Positions 3,594-50,522 of a DNA stretch of 64,000 nucleotides are shown one piece after another. The translations under genes were made by a program, and so were the position numbers. The notes under the pieces are model-generated. The model made no database searches and was not told the DNA's origin. It worked only from the letters and a program-made list of their open reading frames with translations. Each line of letters opens with the position of its first letter. The first letter of the stretch is position 1. The stretch covers positions 66,233-130,232 of the forward strand of contig DATJVX010000061.1 in assembly GCA_035501595.1 (NCBI GenBank), read 5' to 3'. The DNA comes from Casimicrobiaceae bacterium. Lineage in GTDB: Bacteria; Pseudomonadota; Gammaproteobacteria; Burkholderiales; Casimicrobiaceae.

Positions 3594-4568
3594 TCATTTC
3601 GCCGGGATCATCACCAGGCGGTCGGTCCCGGACTCCGCAGCCCAGAGCTCGCCGGCGCGCCCGAGCATCTGTCGGACGTTGGCGCCGGTGCGGTTCGATT
3701 GAAAGCTCTCGAACGTCTCCGTCGTCGGATCGAAGCGGACGATGGCATTGGTCGTCCATTCGCTGAGCCAGACCTTGTCCAGACTGTCGACCCAGACCGC
3801 GTAGACGTGCGCGCTGCCGGGCAGCTTCCACTCGCGCCAGGCGTTGCCCGCGGGGTCGTACATGCCGACCTGGCCGGTGTTCCAGTAGCTCACCCAGATG
3901 CGGCCGCGCGAATCGGACCATACCCGCCGCGCGCCTTGCCCCGGTGTGGGCGGTTCGATCACCGTCGCGTTGCCCGACTCCACGTCGATGCGCGCGATGT
4001 GGTTGCCCGCGAGCGAGGCGTAATAGACGTCGCCTGAAGGGGTCGTGGTCATGCCGTACGGACCGCTGCCGCGCGGCGCCGTCCAGACTTTCATGTCCGA
4101 GGTCGCCGGATCGAGCCGGCCGTAGTAGCCGCTCTGTCCGGTAAACCACAAGCGACCCTTCTTGTCGAACGTGGCCGTGTTGAGGTTGGCGTAGGCAGCA
4201 TCGGCCGGCAGCTTCCAGAGCTTCACGGCGCGGGTCTTCGGATCGACGCGAACGATCGCATTCTGGCCTCCGTCGGTGATCCACGGCGCGCCGTCGGGAG
4301 CGACGATGACGCCGTGCGGCGCCGAGCCCGCGCCGAGCGCGATCTCCTCGAGCTTGCCGCTCTTCGGGTCGAGGATGCCGAGCTTGCCGGTCAACTGCGC
4401 CGTGTAATAGACGGGACCGTCCGCACCGGGCGCCGCGGCGACATCGTGCGGATGCGCGCCCTTCGAGACGTCGAAATACGCCGGCGCCGCCTGCGCGAGG
4501 AGCGGCCCCGCGGCCGCCAGCCACGCGAGCAGCCGCAAGAACCGCAATGCGCCATCGAGGTGATTCAT
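3594..4568 (-). CDS. secreted beta-propeller protein of the virginiamycin B lyase (Vgb)-like family
   Basis: 324 aa with signal peptide MNHLDGALRFLRLLAWLAAAGPLLAQA. Repeated ...G.LWFT / IARID / IVRFDP blade-like motifs as in Vgb-like six-bladed propellers. Confidence 0.8.
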   Translation of the reverse strand: MNHLDGALRFLRLLAWLAAAGPLLAQAAPAYFDVSKGAHPHDVAAAPGADGPVYYTAQLTGKLGILDPKSGKLEEIALGAGSAPHGVIVAPDGAPWITDGGQNAIVRVDPKTRAVKLWKLPADAAYANLNTATFDKKGRLWFTGQSGYYGRLDPATSDMKVWTAPRGSGPYGMTTTPSGDVYYASLAGNHIARIDVESGNATVIEPPTPGQGARRVWSDSRGRIWVSYWNTGQVGMYDPAGNAWREWKLPGSAHVYAVWVDSLDKVWLSEWTTNAIVRFDPTTETFESFQSNRTGANVRQMLGRAGELWAAESGTDRLVMIPAK

Positions 4569-4659
4569 GTTCGCCTCCAGCGGGGCGCGAGCGTTCGCCG
4601 CGGCACCCTCCCCTGCATTCTACGGTACGATCGCGGGGCCGCCCTCCCGCTCGCCGACC

Positions 4660-6075
4660 ATGATTCCCAGCCGCACCGCGGCGCTCGAGCGCGCCCTGTG
4701 CTACTTCGACTCCGGCGCGTTCCGCGACGATCTCGCGCGCCGCGTCGCGTACCGCACGGAGAGCCAGGAGCCCGCGCAAGCGCCGAGCCTGCGCGCGTAC
4801 CTGGGCGACGAGGTCGCGCCATCGGCGGCGCGCCTCGGGTTCCACTGCACGATCGTCGAGAACGACGCGCACGGTCCCATGCTGATCGGCGAGCGGCACG
4901 AAGACCCGTCGCTGCCGACGCTGCTCACTTACGGTCATGGCGACGTCGTGCGCGGGTACGACAGGCAGTGGCGCATGCCGCTCGTGCCGTGGTCGCTCAC
5001 GATCGAGGGCGATCGCTGGTACGGCCGTGGCACCGCCGACAACAAGGGGCAGCACAGCATCGTGCTCGGCGCGCTCGCGAGCGCTATCGAAGCCCGCGGC
5101 GGCAGGCTCGGCTACAACGTGAAGCTGCTCGTCGAAACAGGAGAGGAAGTCGGCTCCCCCGGGCTGCACGAGGTCTGTCGACTCCATCGCGACGAGCTTC
5201 GATCCGACGTGCTTATCGCCTCCGACGGCCCGCGGATTTCCGCCGGGCGGCCGACGATCTTCCTGGGCTCCCGCGGCTGCGTGAACTTCCTCCTCTCGCT
5301 GCGACTGCGCGACGGCGCTCATCACTCCGGCAACTGGGGCGGCTTGCTCGCCAACCCGGCGACGATCCTCGCGCACGCGCTGGCCGGCATGATCGGACCG
5401 CGGGGGACGATCGAGGTAGACGGCTTGCGCTCGCCGCCGCTGCCCGATGCGGTGCGGCGAGCGCTCGCCGGCGTCCGCATCGGGGGCGACGAAGGCGACC
5501 CGGACATCGACCGGACCTGGGGCGAGCCCGGGCTCTCTCCGAGCGAGCGCGTGTTCGGCGCCAACACGCTCGAGGTCCTCGCCTTCAAGGCCGGCAATCC
5601 CGACAACCCGGTCAACGCGATCCCGCCGAGCGCCACCGCGCATTGCCAGCTGCGCTTCGTCGTGGGAACCGACTGGCGCAATCTCGCCCGCCATGTGCGG
5701 TTGCATCTCGCGGCGCGCGGTCTCGAGGCGATCGACGTGGAGGTCCTGCAGGCGAGCGCCGCGACTCGCCTCTCGCCCGACGATCCCTGGGTGCGCTTCG
5801 CAGTCGCCTCGCTGGAGCGAACGACCGGCAAGCTCGTCGCCGTTCTGCCCAACCTCGGCGGCACGCTGCCGAACGACGCCTTCGCCGACATCCTCGGCCT
5901 GCCCACGATCTGGATCCCGCACTCGTATCCCGGCTGCTCGCAGCACGCGCCCGGCGAGCACCTGCTGGGCTCAGTCGCCCGCGAGGGACTGCTGATGATG
6001 GCCGGCCTGTTCTGGGACTTCGGCGACGGCGAGGCGGCGCGACTGAGCTCCGGGCGCCCGGGCGGCGCGCGCTAG
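4660..6075 (+). CDS. M20 family metallopeptidase (dipeptidase-like)
   Basis: MIPSRTAALERALCYFDSGAF... TYGHGDVV ... WYGRGTADNKGQ ... ETGEEVGSPG are M20 metal-binding/catalytic motifs. The start is taken at ATG 4660; the listed ORF begins at 4567 with Ala/Pro-rich sequence. Confidence 0.88.
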   Translation: MIPSRTAALERALCYFDSGAFRDDLARRVAYRTESQEPAQAPSLRAYLGDEVAPSAARLGFHCTIVENDAHGPMLIGERHEDPSLPTLLTYGHGDVVRGYDRQWRMPLVPWSLTIEGDRWYGRGTADNKGQHSIVLGALASAIEARGGRLGYNVKLLVETGEEVGSPGLHEVCRLHRDELRSDVLIASDGPRISAGRPTIFLGSRGCVNFLLSLRLRDGAHHSGNWGGLLANPATILAHALAGMIGPRGTIEVDGLRSPPLPDAVRRALAGVRIGGDEGDPDIDRTWGEPGLSPSERVFGANTLEVLAFKAGNPDNPVNAIPPSATAHCQLRFVVGTDWRNLARHVRLHLAARGLEAIDVEVLQASAATRLSPDDPWVRFAVASLERTTGKLVAVLPNLGGTLPNDAFADILGLPTIWIPHSYPGCSQHAPGEHLLGSVAREGLLMMAGLFWDFGDGEAARLSSGRPGGAR

Positions 6076-43857: not shown

Positions 43858-46800
43858 TCAACGAAAATCGCGCGAGCGGGTTACCAGCCTGCCGAGCAGC
43901 GCCGTCTGATCGCGCAAGCGCGCGGCGATGAGATGCATGACCTCGCCTTCGCGCTCGAGCGTGCCGTAGACGGTCATCAGGCTCGAGCGCAGGAGCTCCT
44001 TGCGCTGCCGCTCGGCGAGATCGTTCCAGACGATGACGTTGACCATGCCGGTCTCGTCCTCGAGCGTGACGAACGTGACGCCGCTCGCAGTGCCCGGACG
44101 CTGACGCCCGGTGACGAGCCCGGTGAAGCGTGCGGCGCGCCCGTGCGGCAGCGCCTTGAGCTCCACGGCCGTCGCCATGCGCTGGCGCGCGAGCCGCGCG
44201 CGCAGCAGCGCCAGCGGATGACGGCCCAGCGACAGGCCCAGGCTCGCGTAGTCGGCGACGATGTCTTCGCCTTCGCTGGGCGGCGCCAGCACCGCCGGCG
44301 CCTCGGCGATCGCCGAGCGCTCGAGCACTTCCGGCAATCGCTCGACGCCGGAGACGTCCCAGACCGCGCGGCGGCGATGGCCAGAGAGGCTGGCGAGGGC
44401 GCCGGCGGCCGCCAGCGCCTCGCTGTCGCGCGGGTTCAAGCTCGCGCGGCGAACGAGATCGTCCACGCTCGCGAACGGCGCCTGCTTGCGGGCACTCGCG
44501 ACACGCTTGCCGCCCGCCTCGGAAAGACCTTTGACGAGGCACAGACCTAGGCGGAGCGCGGGCTGCGGAATGGTCGTCCCCGCGCAAGCGGAGACCCGGC
44601 GTCGTTCGACAAAAGTCACGGGGTCCCGGCTCTCGCTGCGTTCGGCCGGGACGACGTCTGCCATCTCCTCCAGCGTGCACTCCCACTCGCTCACGCCCAC
44701 GTCGGGCGAGCGAACGATCACGTCGTGCCGGCGCAGATCCTGGACGAGCTGCGACGGCGAATAGAAGCCCATCGGCTGCGAATTCAAAAGCGCGCAGGTG
44801 AACGCCGCAGGCTCGTAGTGCTTGAGCCACGACGAGACGTAGACGAGCAGCGCAAAGCTGGCGCTGTGACTTTCCGGGAAGCCGTATTCCCCGAAGCCCA
44901 GGATCTGCTGATAGATCTGCCGGGCGAAGGATTCGTCGTAGCCGCGCTCGCGCATGCCGTCGACCAGCCGCTTCTCGAACGGCTCGAGCCCGCCCTTGCG
45001 CTTCCACGCCGCCATCGACCGGCGCAGCTGGTCGGATTCGCCGGGCGTGAACCCGGCTGCGACGACCGCGAGCTGCATCACCTGCTCCTGGAAGATCGGC
45101 ACGCCGAGCGTGCGCTCGAGCACGCCTTTCACCGCATCGCTGGGATAGCTCACCGGCTCGATGCCCTGCCGGCGGCGCAGATAGGGATGCACCATCCCGC
45201 CCTGGATCGGTCCCGGCCGGACGATCGCGACTTCGATCACCAGGTCGTAGAAGCTCTTGGGCTTCAACCGCGGCAGCATCGCCATCTGCGCGCGCGATTC
45301 GACCTGGAACACGCCCACGGTGTCGCCGTGGCCGATCATCTCGTAGACCGCCGGATCCTCGGATGGAATGTCGTTCAGCGCGAAGGGCTTCCCGTGCCGC
45401 GCCGCGACGAGATCGAGCGCGCGGCGGATCGCGGATAGCATGCCCAGCGCGAGCACGTCGACCTTCAGGAGCCCCAGCGCGTCGAGATCGTCCTTGTCCC
45501 ACTCGATCACCGTGCGCCCGGGCATCGCCGCGTTTTCCGTCGGCACGAGCTGTGCGAGCGGTCCGCGGGAGATCACGAAGCCGCCCGTGTGCTGCGACAA
45601 GTGCCGCGGGAAGCCCAGCAGCGTCGTCACCAGCTCGAACAGCCGCCGCATCACAGGGCTCTTAGGATCGAAGCCCGCTTCGGCCAGACGCTTCGGCAGC
45701 GCCTGCCGGCCGTCCCACCAGGCCATCGACTTCGCCAAGCGATCGACCTCGGCGAGATCGAGCCCGAGCGCCTTGCCGACGTCGCGCAGCGCCGATCGCG
45801 GCCGATAGCAGATCACGGTCGCGGTCAGCGCGGCGCGATCGCGGCCGTACTTGCCGTAGAGGTACTGGATGACTTCCTCGCGCCGCTGATGCTCGAAATC
45901 GACGTCGATGTCGGGAGGCTCGTTCCTCTCGCGCGAGATGAAGCGCTCGAAGAGCATCTCCATGCGCGACGGATCGACCGCGGTGATGCCGAGGCAGTAG
46001 CATACTGCCGAGTTCGCGGCCGACCCGCGTCCCTGGCAGAGAATCTCCTTCGAGCGCGCGAACTCGACCACGTCGTGGACGGTGAGGAAGAACGCCTCGT
46101 ATTTCGCCTCGGCGATGATCCGGAGCTCGTGCTCGATGAGCTTCCGCACCTTGGCGCGCTGCGCTTCGGTCGTGTCTTGCGGCGGGAACCGGCGGGCGAA
46201 GCCTTCCTCGGTGAGCCGCCGCAGGTAGGTGGTGGGCGTCTCGCCCTTCGGCACGATCTCGTCGGGATACTCGTAGCGCAGCTCGTCGAGCGAAAAGGCG
46301 CAGCGTGAGGCGATGCCCAGGGTCTCGGCGCGCCATGCGGGCGGGTAGATCCGCTCGAGGGTCGACAGCGGTCTCAAGTACCGCTCGCCGTTGGGAAACA
46401 ACGCGTGCCCGGCGTCGCGAACGGGCTTCCCGAGCCGGATCGCGGTCAGCGTGTCCTGCAGAGCGCGCCGATCGCGGCTGTGCATGTGAACGTCGCCCGC
46501 GGCCACGAGAGGGAGACCGGCGGCCGCGCCGATGGCGGCGAGCCGCTCGCAGCGCTCGTCATCGTCGGCGGCGAACAGGCGCTCCACGGCGATCCACGAT
46601 GCCTGCGGAAAGCGGCTCGCGAGCCAGCGCAGAGCCTCGGGGTCGGGATCGCTTTCCGGAAGCCACAGGGCGAGGCAGCCCGCGATGCCGTCCGCGAGAT
46701 CGCCGCGCGTCAGCCGATAGCAGCCCTTTTCGGCGTTGCGCCGGCCACGAGTGATCAGCGCCGAGAGATTGCCGTAACCCGCGCGGCTCGTCGCGAGCAG

Positions 46801-47028
46801 CACGAAGCGCATGCCGTCCTCGAGACGGAGCTCGGCGCCGACGATGAGCCGGAGGCTGCACTTCTTCGCCTCCACGTGCGCCCGGACCACGCCGGCGAGC
46901 GAGCATTCGTCGGTGATCGCCAGCGCCGCGTAGCCCAGCTCGCGGGCCCGCGCGACGAGCTCCTCGGGGTGCGACGCGCCGCGCAGAAAGCTGAAATTGC
47001 TGAGGCAGTGCAGCTCGGCGTATGGCAT
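43858..47028 (-). CDS. dnaE2: error-prone DNA polymerase III alpha-like subunit DnaE2 (ImuC)
   Basis: [48 protein letters not shown] (PHP domain) through 1056 aa, ATG 47028. The listed ORF has a 92-aa Arg-rich extension. Third gene of the imuA-imuB-dnaE2 cassette. Confidence 0.95.
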
Positions 47029-47032
47029 GACG

Positions 47033-48472
47033 TCATGCGAAAACGCCGTGCACGAACCATCGCCCGCCGCGATCGCGGTAAAGCCACAGCGCTTCGCCGC
47101 GCTCGTTGCGGCCGACGAAATAATCGCGTGCGGCGTCGTGGCCGTCCCACCAGCCGCTCTCGATGCGCTCCGGACCCGATTCGAGCTGCACCGAGGCCTC
47201 CGCGGGTCCGGCGGCGAGCGCGTGCGGCTCCGGGAGAAGCCACAGGGGACGCACCGGCGCCGGCCGCGAGGCATCGCCGCGCTGGCGCAACCCGGTCGCC
47301 GCACCGGACGCGTTCAGCGCGGGCTCCCATCGCCACGCGCGCTCCGGCCGGTGATCGGCCTGGAGCGCGAGCGAGCGCACGGCATCCTCGCCCAGGCGGG
47401 CGCGCAGCCGCTCGACGAGCTGCGCGCCGGCTTCGGAACTGGCGCCCGCCGCGAAGAAATCGCCGTCTCGTCCCGCGAGCGGAGCGATTTCCTCGGTCGC
47501 GAGCCGGATCGCCGCGACGCGATCCGGCAGCGTTTCGCGTGCGAGCCGCTCCCGCAGCACGGTCATGATGTGCTCGACCTGCCGCGTGGATCGCAAGCCC
47601 AGCCCGATCGAGGTCGGCGCCGTATCCCGGTGGACGAGGTCGCAGGCGAGCCGGGTGACGCCCGCCCCGCGGGCGTGCAGGAATCCGCAGAGCTCGACGA
47701 CGAGTCGCCGCGCACCGAACAGCAGCGCCTCGGCCTCCTCGACCGGCGCCGGCAATTCGAGCTGGCCCTCGTAGCGCTCGGGAGCCGTGAAAGGAGCGCG
47801 TGCTTCGGGGAGCTTCCCCAGCGCGCGGTCGACCTCGTCCAGGAGCGCCTGACCGAAGCGCCGGGCCACGCCGTCGCGCGGCAACGCGAGGAGCTCGCCG
47901 ATCGATTCCACGCCGACCGCCTGGAGCGTCGCGATCGAGCTTCGCGCGTGCCGCAACAGATCGACCGGCAGCGGCGCGAGAGCGCGCGCGAGGCTCGATG
48001 CGTCGATCTCGACCGCGCAGCCGGCGCGCGCGAGCAGGCTCGCCGCGCCGGCAGTCGGCGCCACGGCGATCGCGCTCTCGAAGCCCATCTCGTCGAGCCC
48101 GGCGCGAATCCGCTGCGCCAGCCGCTCGAGGCCCTCGAAGTAGCGCAGCACCCCGGCGACTTCCAGCAGCACGCAGCCTGGAAGCTCGATGCTGACCGCG
48201 GGCGTCCATTGTCCCGCCCACAGCGCGATGCGCTCGAGCGCCGCGGCTTCCGCGCGCTCGTCGCGCAGATGGACGACGAGATCCGGGTCGAGCGCCAGCG
48301 CCGCCGCGATCGACAGTCCGGCGACGACGCCGCGCTTCCTGGCCGCGACATTGGCGACGATCACATCGGGGCGATGACTGGCGCTCGCGGTGACGGCAGG
48401 CGATCGGCGCGCGTCGGCCCGCGCGAAAACCGCGAGCGGCAGGTCGGGGAACGAAAGGCAGATCCAGAGCAC
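47033..48472 (-). CDS. imuB: ImuB, Y-family-polymerase-like translesion synthesis protein
   Basis: 479 aa: [19 protein letters not shown]... is a typical ImuB N-terminus. Flanked by 4-nt gaps to imuA and dnaE2. Confidence 0.9.
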
Positions 48473-48476
48473 CGGA

Positions 48477-49310
48477 TCATTCCCGGGACGTCCCGCGCGG
48501 ATCCGGGCCGGGCACGCGGCGGCCTTCGTCGGCGCGCACCAGCGCGCGATTCCAGATCCGGGCCGAGGGCATGCCGACGGGGTAGTGGCGATTGAAGCTC
48601 GGAGACAGGTTCCGCGGACCGGCCGCGCGGCGAACTGCGGTCAGAGGAGGCTTCGGCGGCAGCGAAGCCCCTTCGACGACTCTCGCCGGCGGCGCCGCCC
48701 CGAAGTCGATCGACACCGGTTTGCTGCAGACTCCGCCGCGGCGCTTGAACACGTCCAGCCGCAGCTCTCTCCCGACCGGCGACAAGCGCATGCGCAGCGG
48801 AGCCGGCGAAGCCGACGCTGCGCGCTCGCAGCCGGCGAAGAGGAACGCGATCGCTGCGGTCTCCTGCGTGGCCACGGCCAGGCGCCGCAGGCGCGCATCG
48901 TTGACCGACTGCGGCCAGAACAGCAGCCCGCCAACGCTGTCGGAACGCAGCACCTGTTCCGCCGCCCACCAGCGGTCCTTCTCCTCGCCGGCGTCGATGA
49001 CCATCGCCCGTCCCGGATCGATGCCGGCGCGCGAGAGCGCCGGGGCGTAGGGCAGGTGCGGCGGGGCGACCAGCGCGATCCACCGGCCCGAGTGCGCAAG
49101 CCTTGCCAGCGCCGGCAGGAGCAGCCGCAATTCGCCGATGCCTTCGCCGTCGATCAGGAGCTCGGTCAGCGAACCCTGCGGCCAGCCACCCCCGGGCAAT
49201 TCGCGGTCGAGCTCGGCAAAGCCGGTCGCCACGGCTCGCTCGACGCGTGCCTTGGCGTCGCCGCGCCAGAGCAAAGGGTTGTGGAGCAGTTGAGCGACCG
49301 CGGGCCTCAT
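48477..49310 (-). CDS. imuA: ImuA, RecA/SulA-fold translesion synthesis-associated protein
   Basis: 277 aa: ...ATGFAELDRELPGGGWPQGSLTELLIDGEGIGELRLLLPALARL...LFWP is the characteristic proteobacterial ImuA pattern. Confidence 0.88.
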   Translation of the reverse strand: MRPAVAQLLHNPLLWRGDAKARVERAVATGFAELDRELPGGGWPQGSLTELLIDGEGIGELRLLLPALARLAHSGRWIALVAPPHLPYAPALSRAGIDPGRAMVIDAGEEKDRWWAAEQVLRSDSVGGLLFWPQSVNDARLRRLAVATQETAAIAFLFAGCERAASASPAPLRMRLSPVGRELRLDVFKRRGGVCSKPVSIDFGAAPPARVVEGASLPPKPPLTAVRRAAGPRNLSPSFNRHYPVGMPSARIWNRALVRADEGRRVPGPDPRGTSRE

Positions 49311-49368
49311 GGCGGATCCAAGCCCGCCAGGCTTTCACCGGGCGAGCTTCGATCAGACAGGAGGGGAT

Positions 49369-49398
49369 AGTTTATCGAACGATCGTTCGATTTGGCAA
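49369..49398 (-). promoter_or_regulatory. putative imuA promoter (TTGCCA-N18-TAAACT) with an 18-bp perfect palindromic operator of the TCGAAC-N4-GTTCGA SOS-box type
   Basis: Minus strand: -35 TTGCCA (49398-49393) and -10 TAAACT (49374-49369). The spacer is essentially filled by ATCGAACGATCGTTCGAT (49374-49391), a perfect 18-bp palindrome 64 nt upstream of the imuA ATG. Confidence 0.55.
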
Positions 49399-49410: not shown

Positions 49411-49500
49411 ATGCTCCCGAAAAGGGACCCCATGCCCGCGATCCCACGGCCACGCAACCCAGCGGCGCTCGGAGCAGGAGACGCCGCGCTCCAGGCATGA
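49411..49500 (+). CDS. possible 29-codon upstream ORF translationally coupled to the Memo-like gene
   Basis: GGAGG (49403-49407), then ATG 49411: MLPKRDPMPAIPRPRNPAALGAGDAALQA. Its TGA (49498-49500) overlaps ATG 49497 of the next gene (ATGA), which has no Shine-Dalgarno of its own. No homology evidence. Confidence 0.3.
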   Translation: MLPKRDPMPAIPRPRNPAALGAGDAALQA

Positions 49501-50522
49501 CCCTGCGCGGGCTCGCCGATCCGGTCGGCTTCGCCCATCGGGCCTCGCAGATGGATCGTCTGATGGAGCGCATGCTCGCGCGCGACGGCGCGAGACTGGA
49601 GCGCATGCTCGCCGAAAGAGGGATCGAGGCGGCCGATCGCTGGCGCATGGCGATCGCGCCGCACGACGATTATGCATACGCCGGCTTCATGTACCCGCTG
49701 GTGCTGCGCAACCTGACCGCCGCCACCGTGGTCGTCTTCGGCGTCGCCCACAAGGCGCGCCAGCTCGACCTGGAAGATGCGCTGGTCTTCGACAGCTTCA
49801 CCCACTGGCGCGGCCCGTACGGTGATATCCCGGTTTCGCCGCTGCGCGAGAAGCTCATGGACCGGCTGCCTCCCCGGAGCTTCGTCGTGAGCGACGAGAT
49901 GCAATCGATCGAGCATTCGGTCGAGGCGAAGCTTCCCTTCCTGCAGCGCGCCAATCGCTCGATCAGCTTCGTGCCGATCCTCGTCCCGTTCATGTCCTTC
50001 GCGCGCATGGACGCGCTCGCACTGCCGCTCGCCCGCGCACTGGCGGCGAGCCTCGGCGAGGAACGGCTCGAGTGGGGAAGCGACATCGCGCTGCTCTCCT
50101 CGACCGACGCGGTCCACTACGGGGACGAAGGCTGGAACGGCAGGAATTTCGCGCGCTACGGGGTCGATGCCGCGGGCTACGACGAGGCGCTGCGGCACGA
50201 GGCGCGGATCATGGCCGATTGCTTCGCGGGTGCACTGTCGCCCGAAAGGGTCGAGCGCTTCACGCGCTATACGCTCGCGGACCACGACCACCGCGAATAC
50301 AAGTGGACGTGGTGCGGGCGCTACTCGGTGCCCTTCGGCTTGCTCGTCGCCTGGCACCTCGCGCGGGTTCGAGACGCGCCGGCGCTGTCAGGCACGATCC
50401 TCGGCTACGCGACCTCGCTCGACGATCAGCGCATCGCGGTCGACGACCTCGACGGCATGGGCGTGACCGCCCCCGCCACCTTGCGACACTGGGTCGGCTA
50501 CGCCGCGGTGGGCTACCGCTAG
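49497..50522 (+). CDS. MEMO1 / AmmeMemoRadiSam system protein B-family protein
   Basis: MTLRGLADPVGFAHRASQMDRLMERML... IAPHDDYAYAGFMY ... SIEHSVEAKLPFL ... STDAVHYG resembles the Memo-like fold motifs. The listed ORF starts at 49392 inside the palindrome, which is unlikely. Confidence 0.75.
   Translation: MTLRGLADPVGFAHRASQMDRLMERMLARDGARLERMLAERGIEAADRWRMAIAPHDDYAYAGFMYPLVLRNLTAATVVVFGVAHKARQLDLEDALVFDSFTHWRGPYGDIPVSPLREKLMDRLPPRSFVVSDEMQSIEHSVEAKLPFLQRANRSISFVPILVPFMSFARMDALALPLARALAASLGEERLEWGSDIALLSSTDAVHYGDEGWNGRNFARYGVDAAGYDEALRHEARIMADCFAGALSPERVERFTRYTLADHDHREYKWTWCGRYSVPFGLLVAWHLARVRDAPALSGTILGYATSLDDQRIAVDDLDGMGVTAPATLRHWVGYAAVGYR

Follow-up and report, generated by a model that had tools for sequence, protein, structure and literature searches.

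Which repressor would read an operator of Gram-positive appearance when it lies in the promoter of a betaproteobacterial mutagenesis operon? The question is raised by the perfect 18-bp palindrome ATCGAACGATCGTTCGAT, found upstream of the imuA-imuB-dnaE2 error-prone polymerase genes in a 64-kb window (the whole stretch of DNA analysed here, 64,000 nucleotides of contig DATJVX010000061.1 from a Casimicrobiaceae bacterium). The motifs that LexA binds are highly variable (17 have been reported), and their divergence has been tied to the duplication of lexA and the later takeover of the regulon (PMC8565304). The comparative analysis described below argues that the palindrome is very probably the SOS operator of imuA-imuB-dnaE2 and that it would be read by the divergent, 191-residue LexA of the lineage. 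This answer draws on the conservation of the box in the imuA promoter, on its recurrence at lexA, recA and cho-like genes, and on the occurrence of the divergent LexA in metagenome-assembled genomes (MAGs) of the same family.

A conserved palindrome in the imuA promoter

The palindrome fills the 18-nt spacer between the -35 and -10 hexamers of a minus-strand promoter (TTGCCA and TAAACT, respectively), 64 nt upstream of the imuA ATG at 49310 (coordinates of all features are collected in Table 1). This promoter is the only sigma-70-like site detected between positions 49150 and 49650 (0.0 in shuffled sequences). A perfect 18-bp palindrome as such is not unusual at the composition of the window (69% G+C), as one is observed against a mean of 1.8 expected from Markov-1 simulations. 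The pattern TCGAAC-N4-GTTCGA has a single exact match in the window as compared to 0.00 in 100 shuffles, and the core GAACGNNCGTTC, allowing up to one mismatch, is under-represented (1 occurrence versus 4.0 expected); therefore, the palindrome is not a dispersed repeat, a possibility which the earlier note on this DNA had itself named as a ground for abandoning its proposal. Searches of the 64-kb window for other LexA-box types gave no match to CTGT-N8-ACAG and no enrichment of the alphaproteobacterial GTTC-N7-GTTC (1 match versus 1.18 expected). The decisive evidence lies in the conservation of the box.

Relatives of the locus were collected by a scan with ImuA, in which one genome per species was retained. 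The six closest (L001-L006) are MAGs titled Casimicrobiaceae bacterium or uncultured beta proteobacterium, with ImuA proteins 58-77% identical to that of the window; Casimicrobiaceae is a betaproteobacterial family, listed under Betaproteobacteria incertae sedis in the NCBI taxonomy. An identical 19-mer, ATCGAACGATCGTTCGATA, is present in all six, located between a TTGAC or TTGCC -35 element and a TAnnnT -10 element, and the DNA upstream of the promoter does not align among these genomes and the window. In contrast, the more distant beta- and gammaproteobacterial cassettes recovered by the same scan carry a canonical lexA directly upstream of imuA together with CTGT-N8-ACAG boxes.

Scanning of metagenomes with the relaxed pattern ATCGAACGWWCGTTCGAT yielded 120 loci, 24 of which are imuA promoters of the same architecture with the exact 18-mer, and further ImuA homologues fetched by protein identity display this architecture as well. 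The arrangement TTGACn-18mer-AnAnT is common to 26 distinct promoters, whose ImuA proteins are ~55-78% identical to that of the window, and the -10 hexamers of the orthologous promoters read TAGACT, TAGAGT, TAAAGT, TAGAAT or TAGCAT. A single natural variant of the 18-mer (ATAGAACGATCGTTCGAT) was encountered, in which the 12-bp core is retained. The gene upstream of imuA varies from locus to locus (Memo-like, PALP-CBS, an HTH gene or a PIN toxin); therefore, the operator travels with, or belongs to, imuA.

The exact 18-mer also occurs in some metagenome loci between genes unrelated to repair, namely FAD oxidoreductase/SDR, ETF-QO and LysE genes (L152, L167 and L121). In viral contigs, 27 matches of the 16-mer TCGAACGATCGTTCGA were recorded, with ~20 related phage contigs (within L081-L107) reading TTCGAACGATCGTTCGAA in a conserved, apparently coding context. 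The viral matches come mostly from one phage family, are unrelated to imuA and were set aside as irrelevant.

Much of what the earlier note had read from the letters of this stretch is borne out. The palindrome stands at the coordinates claimed, and the promoter scan recovers the anatomy that had been described (the box between TTGCCA and TAAACT, 64 nt upstream of the imuA ATG). Further, the identities of the imuA-imuB-dnaE2 cassette are upheld by NCBIfam and Pfam matches, and the proteobacterial setting by the closest genomes (Casimicrobiaceae and uncultured betaproteobacteria) as well as by the proteobacterial type of ImuA.

The same box at lexA, recA and cho-like genes

Loci encoding the 191-residue LexA were retrieved from NCBI MAGs (DATIUK01, DASVBL01, DATKLH01, JBDSND01, JAANMV01, the JADJ-series sludge MAGs and others) and from ENA, JGI and Logan contigs. 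In Casimicrobiaceae-labelled MAGs, the -35/-10 spacer of the lexA promoter holds a first box, GAACGnnCGTTC, and a second box, GAACGATCGTTC, extends over codons 2-6 of the gene. The lexA promoters of Casimicrobiaceae and related MAGs (7 distinct promoters) follow the layout TTGACn-N3-4-GAACG(AT/AA/TT/CT)CGTTC-G-TATnnT, in which the inner G and C of GAACG..CGTTC are fixed. The core of the palindrome in the window, GAACGATCGTTC, is identical to the second lexA box and, in 3 of the 7 distinct promoters, to the first box also. The imuA site is invariant over 18 bp, whereas the first lexA box varies at its centre.

The second lexA box is intragenic, reading ATG TCG AAC GAT CGT TCC and encoding MSNDRS (L228, positions 5975-6020; likewise in L238, L239, L262, L273, L283 and L293), and the N-terminus MSNDR(S/T) is conserved as far as the LexA of Sulfuricella. 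As this box lies within the coding start of lexA, the N-terminus of the protein and the operator would therefore constrain each other.

Among the metagenome loci, the gene for the divergent LexA is located immediately beside ATCGAACGAACGTTCGAT in L126 and L133. The lexA promoter of L126 (TTGACC-18mer-AGTCTA) has the same layout as that of imuA, and its box reads GAACGTTCGTTC on one strand and GAACGAACGTTC on the opposite strand.

The exact 18-mer is found upstream of recA in two metagenome contigs (L163, as TTGACG-18mer, and L120) and upstream of DEDD-exonuclease/Cho genes in four metagenome loci, with four more having another centre. In every retrieved locus of the 191-residue protein, lexA is divergent from a DEDD-exonuclease/Cho fusion gene (for example, L228, positions 4487-5917), and its synteny with the cho-like and molybdopterin-oxidoreductase genes is conserved. 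Homologues of the fusion, a DEDD 3'-5' exonuclease joined to a Cho/UvrC-like nuclease, were seen beside the 18-mer pattern in L112, L134, L135, L139, L149, L154, L223 and L226, and the fusion probably belongs to the core of the SOS response in these lineages. Judged by sequence, the presence of one box at lexA, recA, cho-like genes and imuABC together is the signature of an SOS (LexA) regulon.

A divergent LexA of 191 residues

Searching with the L126 protein retrieved a family of >3000 proteins of ~191 residues, designated "LexA family transcriptional regulator" or S24 family peptidase in Casimicrobiaceae bacterium, Sulfuricella sp., Sulfuricellaceae, Burkholderiales and Betaproteobacteria; all members with a named source are betaproteobacterial, and four (P0113, P0119, P0120 and P0192) are from Casimicrobiaceae. 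The hallmarks of LexA are present, i.e., the Ala-Gly cleavage site (VRAG), the serine of GDSM and the lysine of TLKRL. Against the TIGR00498 lexA model, the protein aligns over its full length with 104 bits, just below the cut-off of 110.95, as compared to 235 bits for the LexA of L016 (a Casimicrobiaceae MAG with a canonical-type lexA). Part of the family carries a PF01726 annotation, and matches to LexA as well as UmuD chains of the PDB were obtained. Pairwise identity of P0120 amounts to 31% with the canonical-type L016 LexA and to 68% with its counterpart in Sulfuricella (Nitrosomonadales). By these comparisons, the protein would not be an orthologue of the standard beta- and gammaproteobacterial LexA, yet it keeps the LexA hallmarks (winged helix-turn-helix, Ala-Gly site and Ser/Lys dyad).

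The C-terminal domain of P0113 and P0120 matches Escherichia coli UmuD/UmuD' structures at 1.8e-22, versus 1.4e-14 for the best LexA structure, and some members of the family are named "polymerase V autoproteolytic subunit" by NCBI, probably an erroneous label for what is a true repressor.

Proposed regulation and the points that weigh against it

In the proposed scheme, a dimer of the 191-residue LexA (with winged-helix and S24 peptidase domains) would bind GAACG-N2-CGTTC between the -35 and -10 elements and occlude RNA polymerase at the imuA promoter. Upon DNA damage, RecA-stimulated self-cleavage of LexA would free the promoter, and the imuA-imuB-dnaE2 genes would be transcribed. We infer that the genome from which the window originates encodes the 191-residue LexA, that this LexA binds the box and that imuA is damage-inducible.

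Co-occurrence of the two components was followed across samples. The exact ImuA of the window is present in ERZ27256511 (a 267-kb ENA contig), ERZ27256474 and JGI 3300032828, and the LexA P0120 in ERZ27256600, JGI 3300032829 and MAG DATKLH01, all of these being sibling samples of one series.

Several observations weigh against a divergent LexA as the reader of the box. Comparison of assembly accessions found no assembly or contig shared by the 191-residue lexA and a boxed imuA promoter, the co-occurrence being limited to sibling samples. Searches by tblastn with E. coli LexA, with the LexA profile and with the noncanonical LexA and its neighbours detected no LexA/S24 open reading frame in the window or in L001-L006. 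The Casimicrobiaceae-labelled L016 and L020 each have a lexA of the canonical type, accompanied by another inverted repeat; the family may therefore possess more than one LexA, and the box has been attributed to one of them by motif identity. Further, the recA contigs with the 18-mer could not be assigned to Casimicrobiaceae. Similar motifs serve as LexA boxes in Actinobacteria and Firmicutes too, and part of the metagenome matches therefore comes from other phyla.

Alternative explanations

The alternative that survives best, and that is still improbable, is the coexistence of two LexA regulons, as in Pseudomonas putida; the 191-residue LexA would then control only itself, cho and imuABC, and a canonical LexA would govern the main SOS response. 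It would account for the canonical-type lexA of L016 and L020, with its inverted repeat GGTACCG-N10-CGGTACC, and for the 18-mer recA contigs that are not assignable to Casimicrobiaceae. The canonical gene of L016 and L020, however, sits in a different, lexA-linked imuABC cassette and not in a genome shown to carry the orphan cassette. Moreover, a recA with the exact 18-mer and the same promoter architecture does exist (L163), and the published Sideroxydans regulon is reportedly of normal size. Even if two regulons coexisted, the size of the regulon would be altered, and the box would still be a LexA operator.

The second kind of imuABC cassette was observed in two Casimicrobiaceae-labelled MAGs (L016 and L020) and a Burkholderiales MAG (L051), and has its own canonical-type lexA, the product of which is 58-61% identical to E. 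coli LexA. In L016, lexA is followed by ~1.1 kb with two open reading frames and then by imuA. The inverted repeat at the cassette lexA, located just after TATAAT, is GGTACCG-N10-CGGTACC in L016 (positions 4140-4200) and L020, and the imperfect GGTACCG-N10-CGGTATC in L051. The repeat can be read as a CTG-N10-CAG box altered to CCG-N10-CGG, hinting at two LexA systems in the group.

Control of the cassette by a non-LexA repressor (a dimeric TetR-, Xre- or other HTH-type protein) acting independently of SOS is very unlikely. Several exact 18-mers between non-repair genes (L152, L167 and L121) would be in keeping with such a repressor, but none of the genes linked to the cassette, in the window or in L001-L006, encodes a regulator. 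Further, the occurrence of the box twice at lexA and again at recA and cho-like genes is a LexA-regulon signature, and the motif equals the one that is reportedly published for a related LexA.

Still less credit is given to a foreign operator, according to which the cassette was transferred from a Gram-positive or actinobacterial donor, or together with a lexA2 that was later lost, leaving a box unread by the repressor of the host. Cassettes of imuABC are reportedly mobile and often accompanied by their own lexA (Abella et al. 2004; Erill et al. 2006). Most of the distant relatives in the LexA search have lexA directly upstream, and the variable upstream genes of the related imuA loci are consistent with mobility. 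Against such a transfer, the same core box recurs at the chromosomal lexA of this family, whose gene neighbourhood is conserved, as well as at recA and cho-like genes, and ImuA itself is of the proteobacterial type. An unread site, moreover, would not stay 100% identical over 26 promoters whose ImuA proteins have drifted to ~55-60% identity.

A chance palindrome or a REP-like dispersed repeat devoid of any regulatory role has a negligible probability and is refuted by the conservation data: at this composition, ~1.8 perfect 18-bp palindromes would arise per window by chance, but the box is single-copy in the window, its core is under-represented, and dozens of diverged loci carry it unchanged at the corresponding point of the promoter.

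The earlier note had offered three explanations. A non-canonical LexA specificity is the one supported, since same-family MAGs encode a divergent LexA with its own promoter boxed; the foreign operator and the different repressor are not supported.

Organisation of the operon and its leader

Table 1. Features of the imuA-imuB-dnaE2 locus, in window coordinates
Feature	Position	Strand	Basis or remark
Proposed LexA operator (SOS box) ATCGAACGATCGTTCGAT	49374..49391	palindrome	Unique in window; identical in L001-L006
12-bp core GAACGATCGTTC of the palindrome	49377-49388		
-35 hexamer TTGCCA, imuA promoter	49393..49398	minus	Promoter scan; TTGAC(N) or TTGCC(N) in the orthologous promoters
-10 hexamer TAAACT	49369..49374	minus	Promoter scan; its first T doubles as the final base of the palindrome
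imuA 5' leader	49311..49368	minus	Invariant TCCTGTCTGATCG at 49362-49350 and G+C-rich hairpin at ~49354-49315
imuA, 277 residues	48477..49310	minus	NCBIfam NF033429 ImuA_translesion, 6.6e-63
imuB, Y-family polymerase-like, 479 residues	47033..48472	minus	Pfam IMS, 3.5e-09; same position as imuB in related loci
dnaE2 (imuC) open reading frame	43858..47304	minus	NCBIfam NF004225 error-prone DNA polymerase, 1488.7 bits
Divergent neighbour, Memo-like / AmmeMemoRadiSam B family gene (called as 341 residues)	49498..50522	plus	Outside the imuA unit

Translation of dnaE2 probably begins near 47030, as residue 92 of the open reading frame is the first to align with the family model. The operator was ruled out as serving the divergent Memo-like gene, since related loci have other genes in its place and the promoter scan gave no site on the plus strand.

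The ImuA of this clade has 277 residues or more, and a weak match to PF27531 (MT3502_N) is recorded. It would possess a C-terminal extension, because the family model and distant homologues cover only the first ~190-200 residues.

Directly after the -10 element, the leaders of imuA share the invariant element TCCTGTCTGAYCG (alignment of the 26 distinct promoters; seen in the window, L001-L006 and the imuA loci among L114-L222). The hairpin of the leader ends ~5 nt before the ATG, and its arms co-vary, 5 of the 11 predicted pairs showing compensatory changes (RNAalifold, 18 leaders). No clear Shine-Dalgarno sequence was seen in the leader, and comparison of the leader with Rfam gave sub-threshold noise only, with no family matched. 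The hairpin may add a translational or mRNA-stability control to the mutasome operon. As a tentative extension, the orphan imuABC operon of this large and largely uncultured clade of soil bacteria could be subject to stacked controls (a rigid, maximal-affinity LexA site plus the co-varying leader hairpin next to TCCTGTCTGAYCG). The family may also harbour two LexA systems side by side, one with the 191-residue, UmuD-like LexA and one with a canonical-type LexA and the CCG-N10-CGG box on the second kind of cassette. If true, the two systems would provide a natural snapshot of SOS evolution by "duplicate, diverge, take over".

Comparison with known LexA systems

In Caulobacter crescentus, imuABC is LexA-regulated, damage-inducible and needed for induced mutagenesis (Galhardo et al. 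2005, summarised in PMC9578287). The locus in the window resembles this system in being an orphan imuA-imuB-dnaE2 operon, proposed here to be under the chromosomal LexA of the host, and differs in the box, the alphaproteobacterial one being the direct repeat GTTC-N7-GTTC.

With the lexA2-imuA-imuB-dnaE2 cassette, which has reportedly been described in Pseudomonas putida and Xanthomonadales (Abella et al. 2004, 2007), the locus shares the mutagenesis genes and a LexA box other than CTGT-N8-ACAG. There, the repressor is encoded by the first gene of the cassette, whereas here no lexA is linked and, in MAGs of the same family, the 191-residue lexA is located elsewhere, beside the cho-like gene. 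The cassette-linked lexA2 of Luteibacter (Xanthomonadales; L030-L080) is preceded by TGTACAAATGTACA (GTAC-N4-GTAC), which is unlike both CTGT-N8-ACAG and the box in the window.

The mycobacterial SOS box is TCGAAC-N4-GTTCGA. The corresponding Cheo box of Bacillus and Staphylococcus is CGAAC-N4-GTTCG (PMC9578287, Table 1). Half-sites and spacing are the same in all of these, the site in the window being a perfect match to both consensus strings, and occlusion of the promoter by a LexA dimer, as proposed here, is shared with the Cheo-box systems. The N4 of the Cheo box is free, whereas G and C are constant at the inner positions here (GAACG..CGTTC), and the host is a betaproteobacterium. What is shared with the Gram-positive and actinobacterial LexA regulons would thus be the motif string and not membership of the regulon. 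The label "Actinobacterial/Gram-positive-type" given by the earlier note is apt for the resemblance of the motif and fails for its origin, as the host and the named LexA members are betaproteobacterial.

The closest counterpart is a noncanonical LexA that has reportedly been characterised in the betaproteobacteria Sideroxydans lithotrophicus and Gallionella, with the motif GAACGaaCGTTC, and is said to have been inferred in Nitrosomonadales and Methylophilales as well (Sanchez-Alberola et al. 2015, J Bacteriol 197:2622; listed among the references of PMC8565304). The DNA-binding domain of this LexA is said, in that study, to have little similarity to that of the Gram-positive LexA. Both systems are betaproteobacterial, the reported motif GAACGaaCGTTC equals the GAACG-N2-CGTTC found here, both repressors are unrelated to the standard beta- and gammaproteobacterial LexA, and imuA-imuB-dnaE2 and lexA are among the known or proposed targets. 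The 68% identity of P0120 to the LexA of Sulfuricella (Nitrosomonadales) provides an indirect link between the two. Unlike that system, the host here belongs to Casimicrobiaceae, a family represented mostly by MAGs of uncultured bacteria from soil and sludge (65-71% G+C), and the imuA site is extended to a perfect palindrome of 18 bp that is invariant and centred on GATC.

The premise that the LexA of beta- and gammaproteobacteria recognises CTGT-N8-ACAG, from which the earlier note had started, holds for the distant cassettes and is incomplete as a rule, a Bacillus-like LexA motif having reportedly been published for betaproteobacteria already. An annotation pipeline following that rule would overlook the SOS regulon in these genomes. 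The arrangement TTGACn-ATCGAACGATCGTTCGAT-AnAnT would serve as a sequence marker for damage-inducible mutagenesis genes in the clade. The locus is therefore a new example, in a new host family, of a LexA motif already described in betaproteobacteria, with no new mechanism, and it extends the known Bacillus-like betaproteobacterial motif to Casimicrobiaceae and to their uncultured relatives from soil and sludge.

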